Source of the DNA: a virus
Taxonomy: Duplodnaviria; Caudoviricetes
IMG/VR virus record: IMGVR_UViG_3300029288_000115
Span: 32,163 to 96,162 of that record
Reading direction: 5' to 3' (one strand)
DNA: 64,000 nt
The translations under genes and the position numbers were made by a program. The notes beneath the pieces were generated by a model, which was given only the letters and a program-made list of their open reading frames with translations, was not told where the DNA came from and searched no databases. Shown piece after piece: positions 776 to 64,000 of this stretch (within the stretch, counting starts at the first letter, position 1; each line of letters begins with the position of its first letter).

Positions 776-3544
776 TTATTTGCGACGTCCCATAAGGTGG
801 TAGATTAAATTAAGAATCCTCTCCTCTTCCTTACTAGGGGCGTCTCTATCCGTTCCGACTTTTACCTCGGATAAGCTGTCAAAGTGTAACGAACTTTCTC
901 TTAAAGCGTCTCGGAACCTTTCAATCAATTCTCCAGCCTCCTCTTCAGAAGAGCTTTGTTCGAGTAGTGCTCGAACTCTTTCTGATAGATTCAGTCCAGA
1001 GAATTCTAGTTTACATTCTATAAACTTTTTAATTAGTTCTTTCTTATGTTGTTCTTCTGCTTTATCTAAATTAGTTTTTAATAGTATTATATCATTATCT
1101 TTAGCCACCAAGGATTCAGAAAGCTTCTTTATTTCTTCTTTACTGGAAGCCTCAATTTCGTCTAATTGGGTCTTTGACTGATCTAAAAGGTCTTGGTACT
1201 CTTTCAACTTTACTGTCATTTCTGCCTCAAATTCATCGCCTTCTTTATTTAATATGTCATTCTTCTCATTCAAAGTTACCATATCATTAGCATAATTTCT
1301 CAAAGTCTCATTATATAACTCTTCCAATTTGACTAAAGATTCGCTAGCAATAGCCTCATTAATCTTTAAACTGGTTATTAGCTTTCTTGTCGCAGAAAAC
1401 GATTTATTCTCTTCAGCAAATCTTTTCTTACTCTCACCTAATAAACCACGTTTACCCATCTCGTCCTCCAACCACATAAGATATATTACATCCCTTCCAC
1501 CAAAAGCTTTATCATCGCCAACTATTTTATCATAAGTATTATATAACTCCTCTAAGTCCTCATTTGAAAGCCCAATAATGTCTTTTCTAGATAACTGCTC
1601 ATTTAAAATCTTAAGGCCTTTATCTTTAGTAAATCTTATTAAATTAGAATAAATAGTCTCTTCATCTTTTCCTATTTGATCGGCTATAAATTTTTCTGCC
1701 TCATCTAAAGGAACTTGTAATTGTGCAATAAGCCTCTTGCTGGCCAAAGACCGCTTTGATTCATCTAATAGGTCATCAACAGTAAGTGCAGCTAAAGCTC
1801 GTAACTGCTCACTTAAAATATGTCCTTTAATAAGCTCTTTAGTGCCCACACGCTTACTACTTTCGAAGTTTATTCCACCAGCAGACTTTGGTCCAAGTCC
1901 TAACTTATATTGTAAATAATTGTCAAGACGACCTAAAAGTTCATATTGCCCAAATCTCTTTTTACCTAAAAACTTTAACACGGCCTTCTCAAATTTCTCA
2001 AAATTCTCTCCCCCATCCAACCAATCCCAATAATCCCGACCAGAAAGCTTTATTCCAGTCTTTTTACTCAAAGAAGAAGCCATTTTCTCAAAATATAACT
2101 TCTCTTCATCTGATAGGCTACTATAATTTTTATCTTCCTTGGGGTTTGGTTTGCCTTTCTTAGACTCTTTGATTACGCCAAGGCTCTCAGAGGGTTTCTT
2201 TGACTCTCCTAATAGGCTTCTAGCCTTATCATCAATGACTACTTTCATATCCTCTGTAGGCTCTATCCTCTCACCCGAGGCATTTTCTACGCCCTCAATT
2301 TGAATATCATCAATAAATGTTCTGGTTTCACCAGGCTCTCCTTCCGGTCCTTCACCATAACGAGTGTCAATATGATATGTCACGTAAACCTCAGCCTTAT
2401 AGGGCGTCAATAAAGTCTCTCCAGGACTTTCTATATCTGGCTCTTCCATCTCAAAATCAATAGTCATATACTTATCATAATGGTCTACTCTTTCCTTCAA
2501 AGTTTCTTTCTTCTTTGTCTTCTTATTAACATCTTTCAAATCATCCGCACCCGTTTCCTTAGCAGATCGAAGTTTATACTTTCCAGATCTATTATCCTCT
2601 AAAGCCTTATGCTCATATTGAGGATTCGTCTTTTTAAAGTCACTAAACACTTGCTCATAATTTTCTGAACCAAAGGATTTTTTGTTATTATAACACCATT
2701 GCAAAAAAGCCTCAATCTCATCTATTTCATCTATATAGAGTTCTTCTTGAATCATCGGCAAAAGTTCTTCAGGATTTAATGTTCCAAGACTTCCTGCTGC
2801 CTGTTTGATAAGCAAATAATTTCTATCACCTAATAGCTTCATTTCTTTTATGACTTTATTCTCCTCTTTTTCCTTCTTAATGTTTTCCAAGACAACCTTT
2901 GCATCATTACATTTTAAGGATTCTAATATACATATGGCATACTTCGAATCAATTTTATTTGATTCCAAACCATTCTTAACTATGCCAACAATATCTCTTT
3001 CAACTCTAGCAGGATACACACCAACAGTACTTGGATCAGCAGTAAAATCAGTCGTTATATACTTATAAGATTCTGGAATGACCTTAAAGTGCTTTCCTAA
3101 TACTTCATCCTCAGCTTCTTCTAATTCACCTTCGGCACGCGTAGAAACTCCAGCCTGACAACCCGCCAATAATAAAGTATTTACTATTCTTCCATAAGGA
3201 GTATCCAAAATATCATACTCCTGCATAACCTTCTTTCCATCTTCAGTTATCCACATCTTTGTAATTGTATGAGACACCTTCTCAAGATTACTTTGTACGT
3301 CATCCTTAGGGTGCTCTGCATGACCAAATAGAGTTCTACTTACCATCTTCTCTTGGAGCTCAGTATTTTCCAAAACCTTATCCCAAACCGCACGTTCATA
3401 AACCCTTTTATTTGCATTCAACATTCCAATATTACAAATGGGGTAACTTACACGACATAACACTCCTGTAGGAAGCTTTGAAGCGTCGCTTTCTACAAGC
3501 ATAAACTTTCCATCGATTCGTTCATTTAAGTTCTTTAAAGACAT
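776..3544 (-). CDS. Prohead protease (T4 gp21-like) fused to long scaffold/coiled-coil region
   Basis: N-terminal NANKRVY, GHAEHP, ILDTPYG, GVSTRAEG, DFTADPS motifs; Glu/Lys-rich coiled-coil C-terminus; precedes capsid gene. Confidence 0.85.
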   Translation of the reverse strand: MSLKNLNERIDGKFMLVESDASKLPTGVLCRVSYPICNIGMLNANKRVYERAVWDKVLENTELQEKMVSRTLFGHAEHPKDDVQSNLEKVSHTITKMWITEDGKKVMQEYDILDTPYGRIVNTLLLAGCQAGVSTRAEGELEEAEDEVLGKHFKVIPESYKYITTDFTADPSTVGVYPARVERDIVGIVKNGLESNKIDSKYAICILESLKCNDAKVVLENIKKEKEENKVIKEMKLLGDRNYLLIKQAAGSLGTLNPEELLPMIQEELYIDEIDEIEAFLQWCYNNKKSFGSENYEQVFSDFKKTNPQYEHKALEDNRSGKYKLRSAKETGADDLKDVNKKTKKKETLKERVDHYDKYMTIDFEMEEPDIESPGETLLTPYKAEVYVTYHIDTRYGEGPEGEPGETRTFIDDIQIEGVENASGERIEPTEDMKVVIDDKARSLLGESKKPSESLGVIKESKKGKPNPKEDKNYSSLSDEEKLYFEKMASSLSKKTGIKLSGRDYWDWLDGGENFEKFEKAVLKFLGKKRFGQYELLGRLDNYLQYKLGLGPKSAGGINFESSKRVGTKELIKGHILSEQLRALAALTVDDLLDESKRSLASKRLIAQLQVPLDEAEKFIADQIGKDEETIYSNLIRFTKDKGLKILNEQLSRKDIIGLSNEDLEELYNTYDKIVGDDKAFGGRDVIYLMWLEDEMGKRGLLGESKKRFAEENKSFSATRKLITSLKINEAIASESLVKLEELYNETLRNYANDMVTLNEKNDILNKEGDEFEAEMTVKLKEYQDLLDQSKTQLDEIEASSKEEIKKLSESLVAKDNDIILLKTNLDKAEEQHKKELIKKFIECKLEFSGLNLSERVRALLEQSSSEEEAGELIERFRDALRESSLHFDSLSEVKVGTDRDAPSKEEERILNLIYHLMGRRK

Positions 3545-3589
3545 TTTTTCTCCTCCTAAAATCTTTCGTCGAGGTGTTTAAAATCTTAA

Positions 3590-4075
3590 CTAAAACTCTG
3601 CACTAGCATAAATTTTTCCACCAACTTCACAATACTTTCTAACGTCTGCTTTTGAAAGTCTTGTTTTATTATTACGGCATTTAAAATCTTTACCTGTTTT
3701 TTTTGGGCCACCTTCCAAAGAAATCAATTGATTATAACGACAATCAAAATGTCTACCGACTTCTATTGGACCACCAATTAAAGATGTTAATTTATTAACC
3801 TGACAATAAAAACTTCCACCAACTTTTCTTGGGCAACCAGCTAAAGACGTTAGTTGATTATAACTACAATCAAAATACCCACCAACATCTCTAAAGTTAA
3901 ATGGAATCTTTTTAAGTTCTAACTCACATAAATCAATAGCCCCACCAACATCATAACTACCATCTGGATTCTTGTGAATGTCTGTTCTTTTTAAGAAGTC
4001 AGATACCCAATTCTTAATCAGACCCTCACTTACTACTACTTTATTTACCTTATCAAAAAGAGGTTTAAATGACAT
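3590..4075 (-). CDS. Short LRR-like repeat protein
   Basis: About 22-aa repeats of the form VGGxFxCxxNxLTSLxGxPxx. Confidence 0.7.
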   Translation of the reverse strand: MSFKPLFDKVNKVVVSEGLIKNWVSDFLKRTDIHKNPDGSYDVGGAIDLCELELKKIPFNFRDVGGYFDCSYNQLTSLAGCPRKVGGSFYCQVNKLTSLIGGPIEVGRHFDCRYNQLISLEGGPKKTGKDFKCRNNKTRLSKADVRKYCEVGGKIYASAEF

Positions 4076-5251: not shown

Positions 5252-6970
5252 TTATGTGGGTTTCTTATTTTCCTCTAAACTTAAATTATGTTTCTTTGCT
5301 AACTCTATAACTAAAGTAGGATTTTTCTCCAATAAATCTTTTATCTTATCTGTCGTTGAGGCCTTAGGGTTTGGAACTTTTCCTTCGACTTTAACGTCAT
5401 CTCGTTTGTATAAAAAAGCTAAAGGCATAACATCAAAATTTCCTTCGTCTGGAGAATTAATGTCATAGAAATCTAAAACGTTCTCTTGAGTTGCTGAATC
5501 CAAGTTATTAAACATAATCTCAAACGTCTCTTCATGTTGTTCTTTTATAGTGGTCTCCTGGGTAGGTTTTATTTTTTTTTCTTGAGCCTCTATCCAAGCC
5601 TTCTGACCATCTATTAGAACTTTTGGGGCATCTAACTCAATAAGTCGAGCAAGAATATCCTTTGATTTTTTTAATTGAGCAGCTTTTTCTTCAGGGGACT
5701 TGCTATCCAAGACCTTTTCTTTCTTGGCCTCTATCGGCTCTTCTTCTGGTTTCTTTTCTTCCTTTGGCTCTTCCTCTTTAGGGGGTAATTCTTCCTCCTC
5801 ATCCTTCTTCTCCAAAGCCGGTAGGACGTAATTGTTTACTATTTCATATGCAACAGCCTCCACAGGCACATTCTCAAGAGCTCGTAATATGAAGGTTAAT
5901 AAATCATTAACATCCAACTCATTCTCTTTAGCCGCATATAATGTCTCTCCTTCTGCGTTTGTAATCTGTAAATCCTCAATATTGTTTCCATTTCCAAGTA
6001 TTCTAACTAAATAATAAAACTCATCCTCTTTGTTTCCAAAATACTCCTTTTCAGGGGTGATTTCCTCCGGTTCCACTTTGGGGGCATCTTCTTCGGGGGG
6101 TTCATCTATAGGATCATCTTTAGGTTCATCCTCAATTTGAACAGGCTCTTCCTCTTGCTCTTTTAGCTTTTTATTATCCTTAATCTCTTCAGGGTCTTCC
6201 CCAGGTTTCTTATCAGCCTTATCAGTAGTCTTTGTTTTTCCTGCCACGACCTTTGGTTCTTCTCCTTGCTGAGGTGGCACCACACCCTTAGAATCATCTT
6301 TACTTTCTTTTGGCTGAATCTTACTGGGCTCATCTCCCTTCTTTTGAGACTTCGTTACTGGAGCATTACCGGGTAGGTTTCCTTTTTGCTTTGGTTCCGT
6401 TCCGATTGGAGTATCCTTCGAACCAGATCCAGGCACATCAAGATTTGCTAAATCCTTTTCCTTCTCTGCGTCTCTTTGAGATTTCGTAGCAGGAGTTTTC
6501 TTTGTTACATCTTCACCTGTCTGCGGTGGTATGTCTTCTTGCTTAATCACCTCACCAGTCTTACCTATGGCAGTCTTATTTGTAGGGTCATCCCCCTTTT
6601 GCGGTGGAATCTTAGGCGTAGCCGGAGTATCATCAGAGGTCTTCCCCATCTTTGCCTTCTTCGTAGGATCGTCGCCAATTTGAACCTTTGATACTTCTTC
6701 TGTAATCTCATCAGCATGAAGCTGTCTTAGCTGCTTACTCTTTAATTGCTCATTCAAAGTCTTTACAGATAAAACAAACCTTTCATTTGTAAGATTAACT
6801 ACGAAGGCTCTATCATTCTTTATCCTCTCAATCGTAAAAATCAGGATCTTTCCATCTATATCCCTTTTATAAGTTCCACCAGGACGAACCATTTCCCGTA
6901 AGTCCCTCTCAGTAAATTCTTCTAAAAGTCCACCCTCTTTATTTAAGAAATCTCTTATCATCTTAGACAT
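5252..6970 (-). CDS. Acidic low-complexity protein with internal repeats, probable prohead core/internal protein
   Basis: Very E/K/P/D-rich with repeated PPQxG[DE][DE]P motifs; lies in the head module. Function inferred. Confidence 0.45.
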   Translation of the reverse strand: MSKMIRDFLNKEGGLLEEFTERDLREMVRPGGTYKRDIDGKILIFTIERIKNDRAFVVNLTNERFVLSVKTLNEQLKSKQLRQLHADEITEEVSKVQIGDDPTKKAKMGKTSDDTPATPKIPPQKGDDPTNKTAIGKTGEVIKQEDIPPQTGEDVTKKTPATKSQRDAEKEKDLANLDVPGSGSKDTPIGTEPKQKGNLPGNAPVTKSQKKGDEPSKIQPKESKDDSKGVVPPQQGEEPKVVAGKTKTTDKADKKPGEDPEEIKDNKKLKEQEEEPVQIEDEPKDDPIDEPPEEDAPKVEPEEITPEKEYFGNKEDEFYYLVRILGNGNNIEDLQITNAEGETLYAAKENELDVNDLLTFILRALENVPVEAVAYEIVNNYVLPALEKKDEEEELPPKEEEPKEEKKPEEEPIEAKKEKVLDSKSPEEKAAQLKKSKDILARLIELDAPKVLIDGQKAWIEAQEKKIKPTQETTIKEQHEETFEIMFNNLDSATQENVLDFYDINSPDEGNFDVMPLAFLYKRDDVKVEGKVPNPKASTTDKIKDLLEKNPTLVIELAKKHNLSLEENKKPT

Positions 6971-7926: not shown

Positions 7927-8229
7927 TTACTCAGATATCAGCATTATTCCATCTTCAGTTACAAGATATTTCTGCTCACCAATCTTAAGCGTCTTATCAA
8001 CCAACTGACTTAAAAGATTACCATTTTGGCTACCATCTTCCTCTTTATATTCTATCCAAGCGTCTTTGCCGGTATTTAATTGCTCAAGTATATCACCCTC
8101 AACCACATACTTAACTTCGGTATCCAGATTCGTAACCTCAAAAACCTCTAACGCAGACTCTTTAACCTCTAAATTGATATGCTCTGTAATACCATCAACC
8201 TTGTTTCTAAAAGTTTTTCCACGTTCCAT
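7927..8229 (-). CDS. Hypothetical acidic protein
   Basis: ORF with GGAGG RBS. Confidence 0.6.
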   Translation of the reverse strand: MERGKTFRNKVDGITEHINLEVKESALEVFEVTNLDTEVKYVVEGDILEQLNTGKDAWIEYKEEDGSQNGNLLSQLVDKTLKIGEQKYLVTEDGIMLISE

Positions 8230-8961: not shown

Positions 8962-9378
8962 TTATAAGACTTCGTGCATCTTTCTATCTGTTATCAATAT
9001 GCCATCCCAATGATCTAGCTCATGTTGAATTACAACAGCAGCCTGATCTTTATAAGACTTAACTCCGTTAGAATTCTTTAGCTTAATAAATGGGGCCCTC
9101 TTCGTCTTTACCGTCACATTAGGTAATGATAGACACTCCTCAGTAACATATGTGCATCCATAGGACTCTAAAATCTCTGAATCAATTAAATTTAAACTAA
9201 AATCCTTGGCTCTTATAATCGCAAGTCTTAATGGAAATCCAATCTGGATAGCCGATAGGCCTATACCATTTGGGTAATTTCTTAATTCTTCTTCCAATAA
9301 TCGAACAATCTTAATAACCTCGGCTTTCAAAGGCCGTACCGACCGCATCCTTAAAGTATTAATATCTGTTACTACCAT
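8962..9378 (-). CDS. def: Peptide deformylase
   Basis: GIGLSAIQ, EECLS (EGCLS variant) and QHELDHWDG motifs. Confidence 0.92.
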   Translation of the reverse strand: MVVTDINTLRMRSVRPLKAEVIKIVRLLEEELRNYPNGIGLSAIQIGFPLRLAIIRAKDFSLNLIDSEILESYGCTYVTEECLSLPNVTVKTKRAPFIKLKNSNGVKSYKDQAAVVIQHELDHWDGILITDRKMHEVL

Positions 9379-10145: not shown

Positions 10146-12881
10146 TTATTTCTTTCCTCGGTCGTTTTTGGCTACGGTTGCAACCATCTGCCGAGTTTTC
10201 TTATCAAATGCGATTTTAGTATTTTTGTATCGACTTTCCCATAAATTATTTAGGGCCCTTTGCCTGTTTTTCTTACCTTCTTTTATTGAGGACTTTATCC
10301 TGTCTATGGGCAAAAGAGCCTTTAAATCTGTATTCATAAGGGCGCGATGGGCCTCCGCAATTATATGCTTCTTCTCCAAAGGTATCTGCTTATCCACGGC
10401 TTTTAACATCTGATTAAGGTCAAAATCCTCTAACTTTAAAATCTTATCATTAAAATATTTTAATAGTTTTAAACGATCCACATTTGGTCCTATAGTGTCA
10501 ACCACCAAATCTACTAAATCCTTAACAACGGTAACCTCCTTTTCTAAAGTTAATGATAACTCTTCTTCTTCTGCAGAAGATGTTTCTGACATATTAACTT
10601 GAAAAGTTTTTGGATCTGGGTCTAAACCCATATACGCTAAATGAATCTGACATAGACGTGTCTGCGTGTCGATTAAAGCCCTTTGTACCCGACGAGCCTC
10701 TCTAGCAAATCTAATATCATAGCGCTCTATTGCGGATCGGCCAATACCTTGTGGCATCTCTTCAACATATCCCCCTAATAACTGTAAAGGGGTCTTTAAG
10801 GCACAAGCTAACTGGTTTCTCTGCTCTGTTAAATCAGCTATAAATCTAATATCGGTTTCGCCACCAAGTTTTTCTATGGCTATATTATTAACATCTCCAA
10901 ATACCGGTAATATAATATCTTCATTTACCCCCAAAGGCGAGTTATGCACAAATACTCCAGCTTTTAATGGAAAATTATGATTACGTTCTGTAGTAATGTC
11001 ATAAGTGTCTTCTTTAAAATTTAGCCTCTCCACCCTTACTACTTTGTGATTTAAAGCTCCTACAAACCTTCCAAGCTCATCTCTTATCCTACTTGGTACA
11101 TTCCTCAGAGAATAACGTCTTCCTGTAAGAGCTCTTATTTGATTCTCTCTATACTTAGGTTGCGCCCACAAACCTTTTAGATTCTCACTCTGCATAGTAG
11201 CAAAAGCTTCCTTATCTGTATACAGCCTTTTATTCTTCTGTTTTGAACCAAGCTTACATCCCATCTTGCCTTTTACTTTAGTTCTAAACTCTAAAGTTGC
11301 CCAGCGATCTTTTGCCCTCTTGGAAATACTTTGTCCCTTTTCGGCTCTTTCCTCTTCTGAATAGCCTAACCATCTCTCTTTCCCTAACTTAGAATGATAT
11401 CTCCAATGCTCATTATTTCCCATAAGCTTAAGATTACTAGGGTCATTATTTTCTTTATCAAAATCTATGTGATGTATAGTATCCCCTTTCTTTAGCTTGC
11501 CGTAAACATACTTTCCTACTAGTCTATGCTCATGGCAAAATAGATTACTACAGGGATTATACACCAATCTATACCCCACCAGACCCTTAATGGCTACCTT
11601 CGAATAATAAGGCATTAAAGACTCTCCTCCTACTAGATTCTCTGCCTTCTTAAACTCTCCATTACGAAGCATAAAAGGGTGGTCTGGGGTGCAATCGATA
11701 TACTTACCATTGTCAAGATGCACCCGAACAAGCTGAGCATTAAGCCTTGTTTTCTGAACTTGAATTATCTTATCTGGTTCTAACTGCAAGGTCTTTGAGT
11801 TTACAGAAAGTATATATAGACCTTTATACGTCTCAGGGCTCTCTGCCATTTCCTTTATGCAAGGCTCTTCTCCATTTAACAAAATTAACTGCATATTCCC
11901 TCTCAAACAGTATTTTTCATCATAATAGGGTGAGTCAGCGTCTAAGGAAATAGCTCTAGCCCTCTGTAGTAAAGTCTTATATTCATCTATCATGTCAATA
12001 ACGGCCTCACTATTCGTATTATCCACCTGTACCTTATACAAATACCTTAAAATACCTTTGGATAATCTGGCGAGCATAATTGAGTCTTCCGTTAATCGAA
12101 GGCGTTTATAAATTGGCATAGCATTGGTAAGTACAGAGGTTCCATAGCGAGAAGTAACTCTGCGAGTATCCGGTGCCATAATGTTTACAGTGGTATACTC
12201 GATATAGGTGGGGTCATCGGCTTGAGGCCTTTTCTTCTTAGCTCCTAATATCCTACAATGCACGTAGTCCCAAGGGGGAAGTAGTTTTCTGCTTCTTCCC
12301 AGGGTTGCTCCTAAAGGTGTCTCAAAAAATCCTATAAGACGACCATTATAATCCAATCGACTAATGTTCAAGGGATGATTATCATCATCAACCGCTACCA
12401 CCCCCGTTCCAGGCATTCCATCAATCTTTATGAATAAATCACCATACGCCGCCGTTGTCCAAGCCCAATCAAAAATTCTTTCTTCTATCCCAATTCGGTC
12501 CAATAGCTTTGTTAACTCATTCTGTACTTTTCTATTCTGAGATGTAACCCAAACCGTTGCACCGTGAAGCTTAGAATAGGTTGTTGCCACCCCGGCAAAT
12601 AAATCTACAGCTGCTCCCATCAATGGATGTAAAATAGCTCTATCCACCTCTTTATAGAAACCACCCCGATCCATGCTCACTTGGGTGTTCTTATAGATCA
12701 TTCGAGTTAAATCTTGTGGGGCTATACCAAGTCTTTTAAATGTAGCTAAGTCATCAGGGGACAACTTGGATAACATCTGAACATCTTCGGCGGGGACTTC
12801 AGTGGGAGCTCTTCCTAATCCAATCTTTAATAGTAAATTCTTAACGTTCGTTGCTATACTCAAAGGCGTCCTTTCATTCAA
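10146..12881 (-). CDS. Portal protein (T4 gp20-like), intein-containing
   Basis: YGDLF, YVHCR, YGTSVL..PIYKRLRLTEDSIMLARL, EDIILP, DIRFAR motifs typical of gp20-like portals; about 588 aa after intein removal. Confidence 0.85.
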   Translation of the reverse strand: MNERTPLSIATNVKNLLLKIGLGRAPTEVPAEDVQMLSKLSPDDLATFKRLGIAPQDLTRMIYKNTQVSMDRGGFYKEVDRAILHPLMGAAVDLFAGVATTYSKLHGATVWVTSQNRKVQNELTKLLDRIGIEERIFDWAWTTAAYGDLFIKIDGMPGTGVVAVDDDNHPLNISRLDYNGRLIGFFETPLGATLGRSRKLLPPWDYVHCRILGAKKKRPQADDPTYIEYTTVNIMAPDTRRVTSRYGTSVLTNAMPIYKRLRLTEDSIMLARLSKGILRYLYKVQVDNTNSEAVIDMIDEYKTLLQRARAISLDADSPYYDEKYCLRGNMQLILLNGEEPCIKEMAESPETYKGLYILSVNSKTLQLEPDKIIQVQKTRLNAQLVRVHLDNGKYIDCTPDHPFMLRNGEFKKAENLVGGESLMPYYSKVAIKGLVGYRLVYNPCSNLFCHEHRLVGKYVYGKLKKGDTIHHIDFDKENNDPSNLKLMGNNEHWRYHSKLGKERWLGYSEEERAEKGQSISKRAKDRWATLEFRTKVKGKMGCKLGSKQKNKRLYTDKEAFATMQSENLKGLWAQPKYRENQIRALTGRRYSLRNVPSRIRDELGRFVGALNHKVVRVERLNFKEDTYDITTERNHNFPLKAGVFVHNSPLGVNEDIILPVFGDVNNIAIEKLGGETDIRFIADLTEQRNQLACALKTPLQLLGGYVEEMPQGIGRSAIERYDIRFAREARRVQRALIDTQTRLCQIHLAYMGLDPDPKTFQVNMSETSSAEEEELSLTLEKEVTVVKDLVDLVVDTIGPNVDRLKLLKYFNDKILKLEDFDLNQMLKAVDKQIPLEKKHIIAEAHRALMNTDLKALLPIDRIKSSIKEGKKNRQRALNNLWESRYKNTKIAFDKKTRQMVATVAKNDRGKK
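10941..11909 (-). mobile_element. Intein (323 aa) with HNH homing endonuclease in portal
   Basis: Y|CLRGN start, block B CTPDHPF, TYDIT...HNF, VFVHN|S end; internal EHRLV...IHHIDFDKENNDPSNL HNH motif. Confidence 0.92.
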
Positions 12882-12966
12882 GATACTATAAACGTCGTAC
12901 CATTAACTCTAGAACGTTACATTTACTATTAAATAAATATTTCTAATAGAAAAGTGTTATTTTATT

Positions 12967-13122
12967 TTAGTCTTTCCTGTTTCCCTTTCCCGTCTTCAGG
13001 GGCTTTGGTAAATCTTCTATCTCTATAAAACCCAACCGCTTATATAAATCTTTAGCTAATCTAAGAGACTTATAAATTGGAAGGGCTTTGAGGAGTACAG
13101 ATGTTCCATAAGGTTGCTTCAT
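12967..13122 (-). CDS. 51-aa ORF containing a portal-like segment
   Basis: Not in the track. MKQPYGTSVLLKALPIYKSLRLAKD...; 15 of 21 residues identical to portal YGTSVLTNAMPIYKRLRLTED; ATGA overlap with upstream ORF stop. Confidence 0.6.
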   Translation of the reverse strand: MKQPYGTSVLLKALPIYKSLRLAKDLYKRLGFIEIEDLPKPLKTGKGNRKD

Positions 13123-13560
13123 AGAGTTGCCTTCTTTGTAAGTTCTTCAACATCACAAAAATCTGGAACATATATTGAACCAATAATACATTGCTTGGGG
13201 CACTTCACAATTATTTCTATCCCACAATCTATCTCAAATCCCTTTCTTCAAATTCCTCAAAACATGGCTTACATTTAAAAACTCTTTTCTTTGTCACTTT
13301 TCCCTCTCTTTCATTGGGTTGCCCTTAATTTTCTCAAATCACAATGTTCATATCGGGGAAAACACCAAAAATTAACCCATTTCTCCTTATTGCCTATCAT
13401 TTTTATCGTTCCTCCATTACTATATCTAATCCACCAAGCCCTATATCCACCTCGTAATAAAAAATACCAATTCTCTCATTATTTGCAGCACTTCGCCCCT
13501 TTTGAGATATAACATAAACCCCCAAAATTATAATTAATAAAAGTAATATTATCAAAACTT

Positions 13561-13938
13561 TCACTTTCCCCTCCCTTCGTTCACGTGGTCGGCGATATTC
13601 TTAATTAACCTATCTAAACGATATTCAGTATCTTCTTTTCCAAAAGCAACGACCAGAGTATCTATTAACCATAATTCGGGATATATTACACCCTCTATTT
13701 CTTCTTTCTCTACCTTCACTGCCTCTCTCCCCGCCTCATTCCTTCCGCTCTCTAATCCCTTGTTATACCATTCCATTTTTGCATCTTCTATTATCTCGTT
13801 TATGGCGGTCTCGGCTTCAGCAACCTCTTTACTTAATTGAGTAGACTGAAATATCCCTATGGGTTTTGGTTCCCAGCACATAGAAGCAAATCCACACAAC
13901 TGCCCTAAAATCTCCCTGACCTTAGTTTCCTTTTCCAT
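13561..13938 (-). CDS. Hypothetical protein, paralog of 61717..62007
   Basis: Shared KVREIL and EAExAINxIIEDAKMEWYNKGLExGRNEA blocks. Confidence 0.65.
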   Translation of the reverse strand: MEKETKVREILGQLCGFASMCWEPKPIGIFQSTQLSKEVAEAETAINEIIEDAKMEWYNKGLESGRNEAGREAVKVEKEEIEGVIYPELWLIDTLVVAFGKEDTEYRLDRLIKNIADHVNEGRGK

Positions 13939-14076
13939 CGGCGGTCTCCTTCCGTTTAGTCCATTTCCTACGAATATAAACTAAATTATTCCCTTGTATT
14001 CCTAAAAACTGCCAACCCCTTTGTTTTGGTTTTGGAATGGGGAAACGTAAAATTTTAACAGGAAATCTATCTTTCA

Positions 14077-14104
14077 TCTTTTTCCCCATCGCTATATCTC
14101 CTCT
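14077..14104. repeat. 28-nt gene-junction repeat, copy at 61965..61992
   Basis: tctttttccccatcgctatatctcctct identical at both sites; encodes ...EEI-stop, RBS, MGKK. Confidence 0.9.
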
Positions 14105-14442
14105 CTCTTTCTACTCTGGGCGGAGAGAATGGCTTGGGCGAGAAATTCTACTTCTCTCATCCCAATAAAATACAAAGCAGGACTTTTATTAAACTCTCCC
14201 CTTGTTTTTGCATTTTGAATAGCAATTATTAAAGATAATTTAATCTCCTCTTCCGTCAACCTCTCCGCTTCCTCAATTCGTTTTAGCTTGGCGAGGGCGT
14301 GGCTTATATTTATATCAAACATTTCCTTTTCGTTCTGATTTCTAAAATTTGCTAAACACAAATTCTTCAACACATCCCTACGTGTCATCTCTTCACCTCC
14401 ACCAGTTTGTAGAGAAAATGTATCCTTTATATGGCAAGACAC
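14092..14442 (-). CDS. Hypothetical protein (likely start at MTRRD)
   Basis: GGAGGTG RBS precedes the internal ATG. Confidence 0.55.
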   Translation of the reverse strand: MSCHIKDTFSLQTGGGEEMTRRDVLKNLCLANFRNQNEKEMFDINISHALAKLKRIEEAERLTEEEIKLSLIIAIQNAKTRGEFNKSPALYFIGMREVEFLAQAILSAQSRKREEI

Positions 14443-14596
14443 TCATATTGCGAAAACTAACCCCAGGTGATGGAATAAACCTTTTTATTTTTATTCCAAC
14501 ACCGGGTTTTCTTTTTCTTAAGAAGGGGCTATTAACTAAGACTCGTGATTCCGTGACGTTGTTTTTTGAGTAGCCACCCTTAGTAGTCATAGCCCC

Positions 14597-15310
14597 TCAT
14601 CTAGGCTCTCCTTCTGGTAATAATTTTAATAAACACTTAGGATGCCAACTTTGATACCCCATTGCCATATCTATACAATACCATTTTCCGGCTTTGGCTC
14701 GACAGAAATCAATCGACCAATACCCATCAAATTTCGTTGCTATTTTACAAGCATAATCATTTAAAAGTTTCTTTTCTTCTTCTATCTCCTTATTAATTTC
14801 GTCTAATTTTTTATGATATTTTTCTTCTTCTATACTTTCACTTGTCCAATATGGATGATGACAAATAAGTTTATTCTTATAAATAAAATATCTCCTCTCT
14901 GGATTGATAGGTAAGTCACCCCCAAAGAATCTAAAGGCTGTGTCCATCTCAATATATTCCCGAACGGCATAAGAAGTTACAGGAACGCCACCAAAAACAT
15001 CAAGACATTCACATTCATTAGCTATCCTTTGGATATGTTCTTCCAAAACATCCAAACTTGGCACAAAACAGGTGTCCTTCCAATCGTGTTTTATACTACT
15101 ATGACTTCCCCTTAAAAAAATTGGAAAAACAAAATCTTGAGCTGCCTGAACAATCTCCTTAATATACTTCTTGGGAATATATAAAAATTCCCCTGATTTA
15201 TGCCATTTTCTTTTAACCGGAACAATAACTGTTTTCGGCGTTGGAATAAGACCTTGAATTTTAGGATACCAATATTCAATGGCATTTTTATCAATTCCCT
15301 TTTTCATCAT
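14597..15310 (-). CDS. ATP-grasp domain protein
   Basis: FLRGxxxSxKH, VRE, ERRYFI, WSIDF, WYCIDM motifs. Confidence 0.7.
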   Translation of the reverse strand: MMKKGIDKNAIEYWYPKIQGLIPTPKTVIVPVKRKWHKSGEFLYIPKKYIKEIVQAAQDFVFPIFLRGSHSSIKHDWKDTCFVPSLDVLEEHIQRIANECECLDVFGGVPVTSYAVREYIEMDTAFRFFGGDLPINPERRYFIYKNKLICHHPYWTSESIEEEKYHKKLDEINKEIEEEKKLLNDYACKIATKFDGYWSIDFCRAKAGKWYCIDMAMGYQSWHPKCLLKLLPEGEPR

Positions 15311-15699
15311 TCCCCCTTCCCCAGCAGGTGGGTTCTAAAATCATTCATAGCTTGCTCAATATAATAATCGGTCTTATCCATAGTTCCCATAACGCCATTG
15401 TGATATAGAGCGATTAAAATTTCCCTTAACCCCTCAATCCTTCCGGCGAGGGCAGACACAGCATAATCTACCCCCTCATTAAACCCCACAGTTTTATGAT
15501 AATCACTTTCAGATATATGTTTGGTTTTGTTATGGCAAATAATCTTTCTTTTAGGAAGCTCTCTTTTACTGATTACCCCCTCAAGAGCAATGACGGTCTC
15601 AATAATTTTCATAATCTTTCCTTGCTGGTCTTGAGGAATAAATCCATACAATTGATAATGCTTAACTATTTCCTTTAGGTTATCTTCTCTGGTTATCAT
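15307..15699 (-). CDS. Hypothetical protein, paralog of 62946..63398
   Basis: Shared MITRED, ETVxALEGV, AGRIEGL and RTxLLGKGE blocks. Confidence 0.65.
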   Translation of the reverse strand: MITREDNLKEIVKHYQLYGFIPQDQQGKIMKIIETVIALEGVISKRELPKRKIICHNKTKHISESDYHKTVGFNEGVDYAVSALAGRIEGLREILIALYHNGVMGTMDKTDYYIEQAMNDFRTHLLGKGE

Positions 15700-15711
15700 T
15701 TCGGCTCCTTT
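15682..15711. repeat. 30-nt RBS/start junction repeat, copies at 16175..16204 and 63381..63410
   Basis: atcttctctggttatcatttcggctccttt is identical in three places. Confidence 0.9.
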
Positions 15712-15717
15712 GGTAGA

Positions 15718-15876
15718 CTAACTCCAATCAATAAGACAAACATCTGGTAACTTTGAAACCGCAATCCCTTCGGTTTTCTCTTGCAAAATACTAAATAGCG
15801 TATCCTCATCAACTATTCTTATCGTTGGTTCGCCATCACCTTGCTTGTTTTTATAATCCTCAATTAAATATCTCAT
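15718..15876 (-). CDS. Hypothetical 52-aa protein (MRYLIED...)
   Basis: Not in the track; RBS shared with 63395..63862. Confidence 0.55.
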   Translation of the reverse strand: MRYLIEDYKNKQGDGEPTIRIVDEDTLFSILQEKTEGIAVSKLPDVCLIDWS

Positions 15877-16014
15877 CTCAAATCACCCCTTCCTTATTTA
15901 ATCTTAATTCAAGTCCTCATCACTGAGTAAATCAAAATCTCCAGTATAAAAATCTTTGTCGCATTTATCACAATGAAATGTTACTTGCTCAAAACAAGAT
16001 ATATCAACCTCTGG
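15871..16014. repeat. 144-nt direct repeat, second copy 63857..64000 (runs off window)
   Basis: 143 of 144 nt identical by visual alignment. Confidence 0.92.
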
Positions 16015-16101
16015 ATTTTCTCCACCTGTAAAATCGCCGAGATAAAATCCCATCAGTTCATTGCATTCAGGACAGCTGGCAGTCAACTTAATTTTAAACA
16101 T
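15904..16101 (-). CDS. Small zinc-ribbon protein
   Basis: CPEC...CDKC; AAGGAGGT RBS; duplicated at the window end. Confidence 0.65.
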   Translation of the reverse strand: MFKIKLTASCPECNELMGFYLGDFTGGENPEVDISCFEQVTFHCDKCDKDFYTGDFDLLSDEDLN

Positions 16102-16449
16102 TTTTACCTCCTTCTATCTGGTCTTGAGGAATAAACTTGTATAAACGATAATGCTTAACTATTTCCTTTAGGTTATCTTCTCTGGTTATCATTTCGGCTC
16201 CTTTCACATTACCAGCCATTTCTCAAACCCCCACTTTGGGCGGGGGATGTCGCCGCTCTATATTTTCTCATTTTGTAACCTCTATTTCCTTAATAGCTCC
16301 CCAATTTAGTACAGCCATCCTCTCAGAGTCTTTCCAGATCGTAAGCACATTAAAGCTAACACCATAACTAGTAGCTCCTCTGTACTCCTTTATAGTACCA
16401 TCTAGGAAACTCACCATAACCGAAAAAAATAAAATTAAAAAGTATTTTC

Positions 16450-23003: not shown

Positions 23004-23498
23004 TTACTCCTCCAAAATTCCTTTTACATCCTTCTCTCCCATATATGCTACATCATAATATAAACCAAAAGTGTTTCTTAAAGAAACCTTCCAAGGTACG
23101 TCTTTATCATAACAAACCCTATCTCCAACCTTCAATTCCATAGAAATAAATCGACGTTTACTTTGATCATAATACCCACGACCGGCGGCCAAAATCGTTC
23201 CAAACCCAAAAGTTTCTTCTCTAAAGGCTTCTGGAATAAATATTCCACCAGAGGATTTTTCTGGAACCGGATCAGGCCAAATAAAAACACGATCTAATGT
23301 GGGTTTATATGGAAAATACATACCTCCACATAAGTCACAATAAAAAGGAATTTTAAACGTTGATACCAAAAGACTCTCCTTATTATCTATAGGACGATAC
23401 ACAATATCAGGACTAATGGTTTCAGCATTCTCTACACTCTTATTAACCGGCTTCTTGCATCTTGGGCATAAATCCACAATAGGATTTTCCATAATCAT
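23004..23498 (-). CDS. groES: GroES-like co-chaperonin with N-terminal CxxC..CxxC extension
   Basis: KPTLDRV, KSSGGIFIP, GTILAAGRG, LKVGDRV, EKDVKGIL motifs. Confidence 0.85.
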   Translation of the reverse strand: MIMENPIVDLCPRCKKPVNKSVENAETISPDIVYRPIDNKESLLVSTFKIPFYCDLCGGMYFPYKPTLDRVFIWPDPVPEKSSGGIFIPEAFREETFGFGTILAAGRGYYDQSKRRFISMELKVGDRVCYDKDVPWKVSLRNTFGLYYDVAYMGEKDVKGILEE

Positions 23499-24487: not shown

Positions 24488-27461
24488 TAACCTCTCCAGT
24501 ATCTAAATAACTAATTCCGTTTTCCTTTCTAACCTTCCAAATACTATTACAATAGCTTTCCAAATCCTTAAAATGAGAAATCACCAAAACCGCTTTAGTC
24601 ATTCCCTCTTCATATAAAACGTTTCCAATCGACTCTTCACCGGCCTTATCTAAAAATGCAAATAACTCATCAAAAATTACCATACCTAAAAGTCCATTAG
24701 CAATATCATTTCTCTTTGCAATCCATGTATTCAAAGACAGACATACAGCAAAATCAACCCGCCGCTTCTCGCCACCAGACAGACTCTCATACCCAACCAC
24801 ATCACTTCCTATATAAATATCCATGCCTATTTTATTCCTTTCATCCCCGGACTTCAATTGCATAGTTGGACGTATAACAATATTCATTAAACCATTAGAT
24901 ACTGAAGCTAAGTATGGATTTACTATCTGATTAAACTCATTACAAAATCCATCCAATAATAAAGCACGAATACCTTTAGACGAAAAAGCAAACTTCCAAA
25001 AGTCCAACATTTTAATCTCTTCATTAATCTTAGTCGTCTTCTTTGGGAGTTCACCCAACTCCAAATTCTTTTGCTCTAACTCTTCGTCTATTGCGTCCTT
25101 TCTTTTCCTATACTCGTTTAATTGTTCTAAAGTATTATCTAGACTCAACTTATGATAGCGTAAGGATACCTGATAAGCTGAAATTCTTTCTAACAATTGA
25201 GTCTTTTTTATTGAGACTTCTTGGAGTTTTTCCTTTTCTTTTTCTTTTTCTTCGCAAAGAGCAACTTGGTGTTGTTTTACTTCCAAAACTTTTCTATTAA
25301 GTTCCTCCTCCATCGTCCTTATATCTTGCAGAGTCTTACCATTTTTCTCAGATGCTAAATGCGTTGATTCTAATAATAAAATTACCTTTTTAATCTTTTC
25401 CTCTATCCTCCCAATCTGTTCATAATAGTCTTCAACAAAACTACTCACGTTAGATTTTTCAATCTTTGCGCCACATTTATCACATATAGCACCAATTTCC
25501 AGCTTTTCCGCGGAGCTTATTAGAGCCCTAACCCTATCAATTTCTTGCTCAGCATACTTAATATCGAACTCATATCCAGTAGCATCTTTAATTATCTTAT
25601 TTTTTTCTGTTTGGCAATCTTCAAGCCTCTTTCGGTACTTCTTCAAACTCTGAGTTAAAGACTCCTCAGCATCTTTCATGCTCTTCAAATCGGCATCAAT
25701 CTCACTAAAATCTTGGGCTGTGGTAGAAGGTAATAAAAGTATTTGTTCATTATAATTCTTTAAACCAATCTCTAACTCGTATATGGTATCCTTAATTCTT
25801 TTAATCTGCTCATTACAAATATTAAGATTCTGCTCCTGGTCTTTTACCCTGCATAACACCCCTTGAATATCCATTAATAAAAGCTTTTCCACCTGTTGCA
25901 GCTCATCTAAATTAATATTCAAACCTTTTATTCGGTCAAAAATGCTTTCATATAACTCATCATAAATTTCAAATCCCAAAAGACGCGTTATCATTGCGGT
26001 GCGATCAGCGTCACCCATAGCTGTAAGCATCTTCAATGCTTCCTGACTAAAATAACAAGATGATAAAAACACATCTCTATCAAAGCCAAGGATTTGTTGT
26101 TCCAAGGCCGTCTGCTTATCCACCTCTCTCATACCTTCAAATAAATCTACAGGGTTCTCATCTTCAGATAAATTATACCTAATAACCTCCAAGCCCGTAA
26201 CCCTTGAACGTGTAATCTTATAAGCACACGAAGATTCTGTATCATTAACTAACGTTATAGATACCTGACAATCTTTTTCTCCGCGTCTAATTACGTCCTT
26301 ACCTGTGAGACCAGTCGTTGTGGAACCAAATAAACACCAATAAATAGCCTCCCCAAATAGAGAAGACTTACCTGAACCATTAGAATTAAACTCTCCAAGG
26401 CTATTTCCCTCAATTAAAACAAAACCGTTTGTTAACTCATAAGAGGCCTCGCCAACAGATTTAAAATTTTTAACGTGTACAAACTTTAACTTTCCTTTAA
26501 ATATTGTTTGAAAAGATATAACCTTCTCTGTTATCAAATCTTTAATAGATTCCAAATATGTTTGATCGACACCCTTCAAACTCATCCATTGCAATAATAT
26601 CTCACTAAAACTTTGAGCCTTAATCCTTTCCTCAAAGAACTCAGGTACTATACTACTAATCACATTATCCATCTCCACTCTTTTATTCACACCTAAAATA
26701 CGATAATAATTCTTTGTATCGACCTTTATGGCCAACCAGTCAATATCGTCTTTACCCTCCTCATTAATCGTTTTAAACTCCGGATAATCCAATTTTATAA
26801 ATTGAGGAATACCGCCATCATAAATATAAACTCCTCTATCACCCTCATCACCAAAAGTTAAATGCATCGGCGACCCTACCACTATACAATTTGGTGCTAG
26901 TTCTTGTCGCTGATGGATATGCCCAAACCACACCGACTTATTCTTCTCAATTAATCTACGCCAATATACGCCTTCAGAAAACTCATGTTGCCCAACTCTA
27001 GCACCAATAGGAGTCTTATGCAAAACTAAGATATCAAAGCCAACAAGCTCTTCATAATTTACTGGCTCGTTATAGCTAATTAATCTTACTTTATCATTAA
27101 AAATATTAGAGTCTTTTTTAAATATCCAACCAGCGTCCTGAAACCATTTCGGATTCACTCTGTCAATTAAATCATGGTTTCCAGAACAAATATTATATTG
27201 AACATTAATACTATGTAATCTCCAAAAAAACTGATAGGCTATATTTAAACATTCCACAGGCACAGTACCAACAGGATGAAATAAATCTGCCAAAAATAAA
27301 ACTCTAGTCACTTGATGATCTTTACAAAGCTGAATAATCTGGTCTAAAACGGACAACTGTTCTTTAAGCCGACGAGACATCCCGGTTGCCGTATCTAAAC
27401 CAAAAGACTTCCACGTGTTTAAATGTAAATCAGAAAATAATAAATATTTATCTTTTAACAT
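24438..27461 (-). CDS. Fused SbcD(Mre11/gp47)-SbcC(Rad50/gp46) recombination nuclease
   Basis: SDLH, GNHD, GHIH phosphoesterase motifs; NGSGKSS Walker A, CDKCG zinc hook, LSGGEK signature, IFDE Walker B, ISH. Confidence 0.92.
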   Translation of the reverse strand: MLKDKYLLFSDLHLNTWKSFGLDTATGMSRRLKEQLSVLDQIIQLCKDHQVTRVLFLADLFHPVGTVPVECLNIAYQFFWRLHSINVQYNICSGNHDLIDRVNPKWFQDAGWIFKKDSNIFNDKVRLISYNEPVNYEELVGFDILVLHKTPIGARVGQHEFSEGVYWRRLIEKNKSVWFGHIHQRQELAPNCIVVGSPMHLTFGDEGDRGVYIYDGGIPQFIKLDYPEFKTINEEGKDDIDWLAIKVDTKNYYRILGVNKRVEMDNVISSIVPEFFEERIKAQSFSEILLQWMSLKGVDQTYLESIKDLITEKVISFQTIFKGKLKFVHVKNFKSVGEASYELTNGFVLIEGNSLGEFNSNGSGKSSLFGEAIYWCLFGSTTTGLTGKDVIRRGEKDCQVSITLVNDTESSCAYKITRSRVTGLEVIRYNLSEDENPVDLFEGMREVDKQTALEQQILGFDRDVFLSSCYFSQEALKMLTAMGDADRTAMITRLLGFEIYDELYESIFDRIKGLNINLDELQQVEKLLLMDIQGVLCRVKDQEQNLNICNEQIKRIKDTIYELEIGLKNYNEQILLLPSTTAQDFSEIDADLKSMKDAEESLTQSLKKYRKRLEDCQTEKNKIIKDATGYEFDIKYAEQEIDRVRALISSAEKLEIGAICDKCGAKIEKSNVSSFVEDYYEQIGRIEEKIKKVILLLESTHLASEKNGKTLQDIRTMEEELNRKVLEVKQHQVALCEEKEKEKEKLQEVSIKKTQLLERISAYQVSLRYHKLSLDNTLEQLNEYRKRKDAIDEELEQKNLELGELPKKTTKINEEIKMLDFWKFAFSSKGIRALLLDGFCNEFNQIVNPYLASVSNGLMNIVIRPTMQLKSGDERNKIGMDIYIGSDVVGYESLSGGEKRRVDFAVCLSLNTWIAKRNDIANGLLGMVIFDELFAFLDKAGEESIGNVLYEEGMTKAVLVISHFKDLESYCNSIWKVRKENGISYLDTGEVNEKSNTEKEVCNINNF

Positions 27462-61716: not shown

Positions 61717-62007
61717 TCAATAAGTCCGACGTTCTATTCCCGCTCTCTTCGCCTCATTCCTTCCGCCTTCTAATCCCTTGTTATACCATTCCATTTTTGC
61801 GTCCTCTATTATCACATTTATAGCAGCCTCGGCTTCGGTGATTTCCTTCTCGTATTCAGGGGTAAATTGTCCAGAAGAATCTACTTTTAAAATTCTATAA
61901 CAATGTGTTTCAAATCTTTCTAAAATCTCCCTGACCTTGCTGGAAATTAACTTTATTTCTATTCTCTTTTTCCCCATCGCTATATCTCCTCTGTGGTTAA
62001 ATCCCAC
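61717..62007 (-). CDS. Hypothetical protein, paralog of 13561..13938 (likely start MGKK)
   Basis: Shared DNA and protein blocks. Confidence 0.6.
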   Translation of the reverse strand: MGFNHRGDIAMGKKRIEIKLISSKVREILERFETHCYRILKVDSSGQFTPEYEKEITEAEAAINVIIEDAKMEWYNKGLEGGRNEAKRAGIERRTY

Positions 62008-62019
62008 CCCACCACAAAC

Positions 62020-62979
62020 CTATCCTTCCTCATTGGGAACCTCCTTCTTAAAACTATTGTCTAATAGTTTTTCTTTATACCATTCAGGAAAACCCGCAAC
62101 CGCTTTTCTTAAAAGCCCGTCTTTAAAACAACTCCAGAGAAAATTCTTGATTTCTTCTTTTTCTTCCTCCTCAATATCTTTTCTAATAGCAATAAGAAGT
62201 TTCCCTATATCTTTGGGGGCATTCTCAAGTTCACCATTATCTCTTAAATGCTGAATTGATTTTAACCAGCGGGCTTCGGTTCTGTAACTTTCGATAAACA
62301 ACTCCCACTTGCCTTTATCGGTATGTTCTTTCCCCCAATTAGTTTTATGCTTTTCTTTAAATTTTTCCGAAACAAATTTACCCGCCATAAGCGGAATCGG
62401 TTGCCCCCCTAATAAAAATGGACGGGAATAATTTTTTACTACAAACCCCTCAATTTTAGTTCCACCTAAAACACTTTCGGTTTCTAATAAACTTAACAAA
62501 CTTATCTTGTCTTCAACTCGCCCCTTAAACAATAGAGGCACAACCTCAACATCAACCATTTTTGCAAAGCTGGTTAAATTATAATATTCAGATATAAAAG
62601 TCCCACCTTCGCTTGAAACACCAAAAAGAATAAGGTTGTTTGTCGGAGTTCTTTTGTATGCCAAAACGTTATGTCTGGGCGACTTAAGATATTCACAATA
62701 AAAAACTGTATTATTAGGAATTTTTTCTTTAATAGACAAAACATAATCAACCGCCAGAGAAAACATTTTATCTGGTGCGTCAGCAATAATTTCTTTCCCC
62801 TTACTTCGCATATACAATTCCCCATTAACCTTTCCAAAAACAAACTGACTTCCATCTATCTTTTCTGTTATTTCTACATCCTCATTAAAAAGGTCTCTAA
62901 TATAGTCTGTCCCTACCGTAAAAATCTTTGGAAATGCGTGTATCATCACTCCCCCTTCCCCAGCAGGCGAGTGCGGCAC
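62020..62979 (-). CDS. RNA ligase (Rnl2-like nucleotidyltransferase), likely start MIHAF
   Basis: TEKIDGS, E, F, VVP, EGFVVK, K motifs. Confidence 0.75.
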   Translation of the reverse strand: MPHSPAGEGGVMIHAFPKIFTVGTDYIRDLFNEDVEITEKIDGSQFVFGKVNGELYMRSKGKEIIADAPDKMFSLAVDYVLSIKEKIPNNTVFYCEYLKSPRHNVLAYKRTPTNNLILFGVSSEGGTFISEYYNLTSFAKMVDVEVVPLLFKGRVEDKISLLSLLETESVLGGTKIEGFVVKNYSRPFLLGGQPIPLMAGKFVSEKFKEKHKTNWGKEHTDKGKWELFIESYRTEARWLKSIQHLRDNGELENAPKDIGKLLIAIRKDIEEEEKEEIKNFLWSCFKDGLLRKAVAGFPEWYKEKLLDNSFKKEVPNEEG

Positions 62980-63398
62980 TGGTCAATTATTTCTAAACAT
63001 TTATCGCAACGGTGGATGCGTGGATGGTCTCCTGCGTGAATAACTTTTTTGCCAAAAAGCTGACAAATATGATTCTTTGTTGTTGGATGACGCTCGGGTG
63101 TAAAAAGATATTTGCAATTTATAGGACAAAACTTCAGCCCCTCAATCCTTCCGGCGAAGTAGGCGATACAGCTCTCCCTCATTTTCCAAGCTCCGTCATC
63201 AACACACCCCTTACACCCAGTTTCACAAGTATGTTTATGAGATTCTATACTCGGCAGCACCCCCTCAAGAGCAACTACCGTCTCGGCAAGGGAAAGAAGT
63301 TTTACTATTGTTTTTTTCTCTGCTTCATCCACATAACCGGCACAATACAGCCGCTTCATTAATTCCTTAAGCAATGCTAAATCTTCTCTGGTTATCAT
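62946..63398 (-). CDS. Hypothetical Cys-rich protein, paralog of 15307..15699
   Basis: Shared conserved blocks flanking different internal segments. Confidence 0.6.
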   Translation of the reverse strand: MITREDLALLKELMKRLYCAGYVDEAEKKTIVKLLSLAETVVALEGVLPSIESHKHTCETGCKGCVDDGAWKMRESCIAYFAGRIEGLKFCPINCKYLFTPERHPTTKNHICQLFGKKVIHAGDHPRIHRCDKCLEIIDQCRTRLLGKGE

Positions 63399-63862
63399 TT
63401 CGGCTCCTTTAATTTAAAATTCCTTTTCATTATGATATTAACTCCTTCTTCTGTCCCCCAGATATACCAACCCGATTCTTTATATTCTTCTTCTTGAGGC
63501 GGATTAGAGATTATTGTGGGATTTTTCTTACCTCCCGTTAAAAACTCTTTTAATTTACCTTTAAACATAATTTTAGCCTCACCCACACAACCCACTGGAG
63601 AAGCTAATAAAACAATATTTCTTTCTAATAAAGCTACAGACATATCATCACAACCAACACCCTCACCAAAAAAGAATTCCACCGCATAATATCCTTCTTT
63701 TTTAAATTCTTCTAACTTGTCTTGAAGTGGCATATAAGAATGAGTATCAAAATACTCATTTACATAATCATAAAATGCTAATCTTTGCCTATTGTCATCC
63801 CAAGACATTTTTAGTTTTTCTCTTGCATATTCAATCGCCTGATTTATTGTATATTTTCTCAT
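63395..63862 (-). CDS. Hypothetical protein
   Basis: Lies between two repeated junction linkers. Confidence 0.55.
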   Translation of the reverse strand: MRKYTINQAIEYAREKLKMSWDDNRQRLAFYDYVNEYFDTHSYMPLQDKLEEFKKEGYYAVEFFFGEGVGCDDMSVALLERNIVLLASPVGCVGEAKIMFKGKLKEFLTGGKKNPTIISNPPQEEEYKESGWYIWGTEEGVNIIMKRNFKLKEPK

Positions 63863-64000
63863 CTCAAATCACCCCTTCCTTCTTTAATCTTAATTCAAGT
63901 CCTCATCACTGAGTAAATCAAAATCTCCAGTATAAAAATCTTTGTCGCATTTATCACAATGAAATGTTACTTGCTCAAAACAAGATATATCAACCTCTGG

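Follow-up and report, generated by a model that had tools for sequence, protein, structure and literature searches.

The closest described counterpart of the locus reported here is the portal protein of phage T4, gp20 (PDB 3JA7/6UZC; PF07230), in which residues 249–269 comprise the wing's final six residues and the first fifteen of stem helix alpha5, and residues 279–358 form the clip (domain limits from PMC4493910). The packaging ATPase gp17 is bound by a peptide of about 24 residues from the tip of the clip (gp20 288–311), which inhibits packaging (PMC4493910), an example of a short portal piece that is active alone and hence of the type of mechanism that a portal-mimic reading requires. Another point of comparison is provided by the homing-endonuclease-linked duplications of short gene fragments, and the associated exchange boundaries, that are described for phages (for example in PMC10448857).

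The present study concerns a window of 64,000 nt (the whole stretch of DNA that was analysed, bases 32163–96162 of a 96-kb IMG/VR virus record with a completeness estimate of 67%), in which a 51-aa orphan ORF (12967..13122, minus strand) had been predicted from the sequence to copy a conserved portal segment and to act as a portal mimic. The ORF exists and does lie upstream of the portal gene. Its core has in common with gp20 the Y-G-x-S motif and the ...L-x-L-x-E-D pattern, but the likeness extends over 21 residues only, the wing body, clip and crown being absent, and an R and an E that are conserved among portals of the clade are replaced. The core aligns to T4 residues 249–269 and ends about 10 residues short of the clip, so that it includes neither the clip (279–358) nor the gp17-binding peptide (288–311); the active T4 peptide, in contrast, comes from the clip tip. 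As in such cases, the genome carries two inteins and several short partial gene copies, and a homing site lies within the copied piece; the locus differs from them in having no nuclease gene or remnant beside the fragment, and in that the same segment recurs in three phages. On balance, the 51-aa frame is probably an incidental ORF around an ectopic portal copy of about 63–73 nt, that is, a non-functional recombination relic and not a maintained gene, possibly situated at a homing-driven hot spot.

A portal-derived core within a small ORF

The ORF lies in an open frame of 59 codons (12967..13146, minus strand), and its portal-derived core of 63 nt (13048..13110, minus strand; YGTS...LRLxxD) corresponds to its residues 5–25. 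The core aligns without gaps to the parent-type segment of the resident portal gene (residues 246–266; 12084..12146, minus strand), with 15 of 21 amino acids and 46 of 63 nucleotides identical, and six of the codon pairs differ only synonymously; the residue matches and all six of the codon pairs listed originally were confirmed. The equivalence to T4 residues was established by sequence, through a T4-like relative (6UZC/3JA7 numbering), and this mapping was used in place of an AlphaFold2 model of the portal N-extein, which had a pLDDT of 57.

A portal profile built from about 80 intein-free relatives gave 19 bits at the core when applied to 12882–14000, with no other match outside the portal, and the same profile, run in six frames over all 96 kb of the genome, returned the core at an iE of 1.5e-5. 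With a 31-column mini-profile applied to 1.2 Mb of related DNA, the core scored 23 bits (E 2e-6) and noise did not exceed 1.4 bits. On these scores, the match is not due to chance, and the comparisons support derivation of the core from a gp20-type portal, specifically from the best-conserved part of its N-terminal half. Only positions 231–255 of the 573 in the profile are represented, without the full wing–stem–clip–crown architecture, and a Pfam search with the mini-ORF gave no match, including to the portal family PF07230.

Nucleotide identity becomes random directly beyond about 63–73 nt, and the homology covers 21–25 residues. The 26-residue tail of the mini-ORF does not resemble the portal (of 5000 shuffles, 3174 scored at least as well as the real sequence), and the profile scan of the whole genome found no further portal pieces outside the portal gene in any frame; a longer, decayed portal pseudogene was rejected on these two grounds. 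Straight after the core, the tail opens with L-Y-K-R-L (13033–13047, minus strand), which echoes I-Y-K-R-L of the portal and keeps the R that is missing from the core. This was a post hoc observation, and the motif could represent another small remnant or have arisen as a slip duplication.

The resident portal gene and the upstream interval

Genes of the window are almost all on the minus strand, among them the gp20-type portal gene (10146..12881, 911 codons), assigned to PF07230 by Pfam matches and 120 relatives. From the context of the start region, translation likely begins at a TTG at 12863 (minus strand), preceded by the ribosome-binding site GAAAGGA. Residues 325–647 are an HNH-type intein (10941..11909, minus strand; PF14890 and PF13392; boundaries ...KY|C and HN|S), inserted 58 residues past the copied segment. 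The nearest relatives of the portal among 5.8 billion protein clusters are 58% identical, and many of them carry inteins.

An AT-rich spacer (12882..12966, minus strand) separates the mini-ORF from the portal gene. On its other side, the mini-ORF abuts what reads as a frameshifted, small, Cys-rich, Zn-ribbon-like pseudo-ORF (13119..13324, minus strand) with the motif CxxC ... CPxxC, which is read in two frames (13229..13324 and 13119..13247) with the frameshift near 13245. The second frame has 42 open codons and no ATG, GTG or TTG start, and its TGA overlaps the ATG of the mini-ORF. The ATGA overlap described in the original prediction is therefore present as a junction, but its partner is a startless frame that looks like the second half of a frameshifted ORF. 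Searches of the genome and of the related loci compared gave no homologue of the pseudo-ORF. A diverged internal repeat of about 100 nt (C-F-x-x-x-E-x-x-D-L-R-K) occurs at 13332–13364 and 13232–13264.

Homologues and coding signals of the mini-ORF

The mini-ORF matched only itself in a word-indexed search of 5.8 billion protein clusters for sequences of 28–90 aa, and only itself and three tandem-repeat artefacts in an exhaustive phmmer search of 1.84 billion representatives. A scan of IMG/VR found no standalone homologue, and a profile of the segment together with small ORFs added only one further ORF, that of locus L031 described below. Judged by these searches, the mini-ORF does not belong to a conserved family of small homologues, an outcome that the original prediction had itself set against the idea of a portal mimic. 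It had also called the ORF unannotated, although the 51-aa sequence is already in the protein collection, from JGI/IMG and Logan gene calls.

As to signals for translation, the mini-ORF has an ATG start, a weak GAAGG 7 nt upstream and the ATGA junction; 19 of the 49 long ORFs of the genome are without a recognisable SD core. Codon usage in the tail is intermediate, at the 12th percentile of true coding windows, and its score is matched or exceeded by 2.8% of open off-frame and 25% of open antisense windows. An open tail of 26 codons has a chance of about 0.15, estimated from about 7% stops per random codon at the local base composition. The 21 codons of the core are too few for dN/dS.

Divergence of the copy from portals

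Conservation of individual residues was assessed within the clade over 143 distinct portal segments, in which Y, G, E and D are constant (143/143) and S and R are each found in 140 of the 143. The copy retains Y, G, S and D, but has S in place of R and K in place of E, neither of which occurs at these positions in any of the 143 portals, and K at an N/D position (1/143). At three sites where the resident portal has an unusual residue, the copy shows that of the clade majority. Against the 46/63 nt (73%) shared with the resident portal, the best foreign portal shares 47/63 and the mean is 37.9. Mismatches between copy and resident gene are distributed 6:2:9 over the three codon positions (chi-square versus uniform, p ~0.11).

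The original prediction was right that this is not a recent duplication of the resident gene, as the 73% nucleotide identity indicates. Its further argument, that the six synonymous pairs mean that the match is held at the protein level, is not supported; any pair of portal alleles that have diverged should differ in this way, a copy from an ancestral allele equally so, and such differences are uninformative about selection upon the fragment. The 6:2:9 distribution and the replacement of R (140/143) by S and of E (143/143) by K likewise lend it no support. The copy, 73% identical to the resident gene and equally near several other portals, is a consensus-like piece of portal that is either old or of foreign origin. 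It later drifted where portals tolerate no change, and these changes at portal-conserved sites indicate that it has been freed from the constraints of its parent. A recombination scar from the portal of a related phage, offered originally as the alternative, is a better fit than a decoy, but no high-identity donor was found, the best match being the 47/63 nt noted above, which rules out a recent import from any sampled portal. A template/variable pair of a diversity-generating retroelement was also considered and rejected, as the 17 mismatches span all bases and no RT domain was present among the neighbouring ORFs scanned.

Recurrence in other phages of the clade

Six-frame scans of related portal loci, 57 from IMG/VR and 80 from metagenomes, revealed two further isolated copies covering profile positions of about 229–262. 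In L031, a mini-ORF of 59 aa (7929..8108) begins 3 nt past the portal stop and contains a copy of that phage's own portal (78/82 nt, with a 2-nt indel); given this identity, the copy is, by sequence comparison, a recent DNA duplication. In L039, a mini-ORF of 60 aa (3462..3644) lies 1.3 kb upstream of the portal and carries a diverged copy (10.3 bits, E 0.018) that is probably a third case. What is new here is that the same portal segment appears as an isolated mini-ORF in two other phages of the clade, one instance being recent and the other weak. No more fragments came from the 80 loci of metagenomes or from scanning IMG/VR for the motif, and the three cases compare with 101 non-redundant lineages of related portals.

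All three copies are in frame within ORFs of 51–60 codons and on the portal strand. Outside the copies, these ORFs show no relationship with one another or with any other fetched sequence; the copies therefore arose in independent events. In L031 there is little space between the ORF and its neighbour genes, and identical proteins occur on several contigs (three for the 59-aa form and three for a 52-aa form). The head of that mini-ORF outside the portal piece (L031 7929–7994) is basic and then hydrophobic, resembling a signal or membrane anchor. Could the agreement of the three be a matter of detection? The portal has about six non-overlapping windows of 25 residues that are equally information-rich, and the probability of all three copies falling in one window by detection bias alone is roughly 0.03; the recent L031 copy is exempt from this bias.

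Inteins and other short fragment copies

Inteins were tallied over the 101 portal lineages, 87 of which are near-complete in the fetched loci. Intein-sized insertions are present in 19 of the 87 and use at least nine sites (around profile positions 70, 80, 90, 140, 215–220, 240, 275–280, 300–305 and 315–325), and some portals of the clade, itself a hot spot for inteins, hold two or three of them. Isolated fragments accompany 2 of the 19 intein-bearing lineages versus 0 of the 68 intein-free ones (Fisher p ~0.046, with the window itself left out). In P0047, P0110 and L050 an intein sits exactly at YGT|S, within the copied motif (with an HN|S junction in P0047 and P0110), and the two other intein sites nearest to the copied piece, at profile positions of about 216–220 and 277, lie on either side of it. 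When all intein-bearing portals were compared by tblastn with the flanks of the three copies, only noise was returned and no remnant of an intein or endonuclease.

A second HNH intein is found in a 606-aa protein of unknown family (minus strand; L173 248–2068, equal to genome positions ~25147–26967, outside the window). It is 41% identical to the portal intein in amino acids overall and 76% in nucleotides over 291 nt, by which measure one intein family occupies two unrelated genes of a single phage. Other partial copies exist as well. A 41-aa ORF (16094–16219, minus strand) repeats the first 31 residues of a 130-aa ORF (15307–15699, minus strand) over 87 nt at 92% identity, and a 60-nt piece of a 572-aa ORF (5252..6970) is shared between 5327–5386 and genome positions 23052–23111, about 14 kb away and outside the window (78% nucleotide identity; 68% over 22 aa). 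In addition, 13700–16200 and 61740–64000 are collinear and form a paralogous block of mosaic character, in which patches show 87–100% nucleotide identity. One 144-nt patch of 99% identity reaches the end of the contig, meaning that the assembly stops inside the repeat. Several small ORFs of the block occur as diverged pairs (125/96 aa, 130/150 aa and a 65-aa Zn-ribbon type).

Discussion

An incidental ORF around a relic of ectopic duplication accounts for the sharp borders of the copy, its homology to just a part of a complete parent gene and the lack of extra parent sequence around it, as well as for a tail unlike portal, the absence of standalone homologues and the drift at portal-conserved residues. 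Its surroundings are in keeping with this, the upstream neighbour being a frameshifted frame without a start codon in what looks like decaying spacer, and the genome having active mobile-element traffic, other short gene-fragment copies, a mosaic block and a second HNH intein. As for a mechanism, homing endonucleases would cut the DNA in or near the much-invaded part of the portal gene, and repair of the double-strand breaks with short templated patches would copy a portal piece. Homing-break repair of this kind would also explain the independent copying in L031 and L039, where the flanks are unrelated and the portals bear inteins, and fits the occurrence of YGT|S inteins in the clade; the link is circumstantial because no intein or endonuclease remnant lies beside any of the three copies. 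Should the copies mark a mechanistic hot spot, they would be a visible footprint of homing endonucleases reshuffling essential phage genes. Against a mere relic, three independent copies with near-identical borders are unlikely for random duplication (a rough p of 0.01–0.03, given the six or so windows above), and selection for a function of the piece has therefore to be weighed seriously against a mechanistic hot spot. All three are in frame in ORFs of similar length, the L031 ORF leaves little room to its neighbours, and the window ORF has its ATG, weak GAAGG and ATGA junction and an intermediate tail codon usage. That the wing/stem junction (the equivalent of T4 249–269) has been repeatedly and independently copied in intein-portal phages because the copy acts, whether as a micro-protein or as an anti-homing patch, is a tentative proposal drawn from sequence comparison and on the unlikely side; if it were selected, it would represent a new small anti-competitor or anti-homing device. 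In its protein form, a functional micro-protein exapted from the wing/stem junction, a prediction we also think unlikely, would place a short strand and the initial turns of stem helix alpha5 between the subunits of the portal, or attach to a partner of the portal, and so interfere with assembly of the portal ring or with that partner. Putative roles are those of an assembly modulator, a dominant-negative factor against co-infecting relatives, or a decoy for portal sensors. Avs4 senses the portal. Avs2, which had been put forward in that role, senses the terminase and not the portal (bioRxiv 10.64898/2026.08.25.746987). The micro-protein reading draws on the presence of the same piece in three phages, in frame, in ORFs of 51–60 codons beside or near the portal, on the packing of the L031 ORF and the identical protein on several contigs, on tail codon usage that is nearer to coding than to open off-frame sequence, and on the precedent of the active 24-residue portal peptide, T4 gp20 288–311, that binds gp17 (PMC4493910). 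It has to contend with the lack of a conserved family, the unrelated flanks of the three ORFs, the loss of the portal-conserved R and E, and the rarity of the phenomenon (three cases versus 101 lineages); the 21-residue core does not constitute a folding unit, and both the clip and the gp17-binding region are missing from it.

If the copies matter as DNA, they could be ectopic homology patches over the intein homing site YGT|S that contribute to repairing or gene-converting the breaks made by endonucleases in the portal gene, one possible role being that of a template within the genome competing with the intein-bearing allele of a co-infecting phage. Such a patch would steer the repair of breaks at YGT|S and would in effect be anti-homing. 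The copied piece does span the point of insertion of the P0047, P0110 and L050 inteins and lies between the two nearest other sites (~216–220 and 277), copies are known only from phages with intein-bearing portals, and that of L031, 95% identical to its own portal, is sufficient for recombination, so that a homology-patch role is conceivable for it. We nevertheless consider this reading quite improbable overall: the window copy, 73% identical over 63 nt, has diverged too far to serve as a useful partner in recombination, the homology upstream of the insertion point amounts to 9–15 nt at most, and an extra copy of the target is also an extra cleavage site. Chance similarity, or a decayed tail of a GNAT acetyltransferase (...LYKRLGF... 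being GNAT-like), is very improbable. A protein-language-model feature search listed only short GNAT clusters, at 0.86–0.88 against a lead threshold of 0.9, whereas Pfam gave nothing in the mini-ORF at E values up to 10 and a six-frame search of the whole genome with PF00583 and PF13508 gave no match; for the first 25 residues this reading is contradicted by the portal profile E-values (1.5e-5 genome-wide, 2e-6 over 1.2 Mb). Two cautions of wider use can be taken from the preferred reading of the window copy as a recombination relic, namely that a striking echo of a structural gene at the protein level can be such a relic, and that selection on a fragment is not demonstrated by its synonymous differences from the resident gene. 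The recurrence itself is worth following, with three phages of one clade, all with intein portals, having the same piece of about 70–90 nt over the homing site.

Other features of the locus and genome

A perfect 13-nt inverted repeat has one arm in the spacer between the mini-ORF and the portal gene (12921–12933) and the other, 82 nt apart, in the 5' end of the portal gene (12826–12838). The arms flank the ribosome-binding site and start codon of the portal, and could pair into a stem that regulates portal translation. The locus has no Rfam match and no tRNA, and its folding z-score is -2.3. T4 late promoters are not enriched, and scans for sigma-70-like promoters and terminators gave results at chance level. 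The annotated phage collection contained no DNA match to the window, and neither tblastn with the ORF nor blastn with the portal region returned anything useful. A peptide deformylase is encoded in the window (8962..9378), indicating a bacterial host. Two close relatives of the portal, P0022 and P0044, are NCBI portal proteins from MAGs of Candidatus Thorarchaeota and Heimdallarchaeaceae, and come either from viruses of Asgard archaea or from phage contigs binned into those MAGs.
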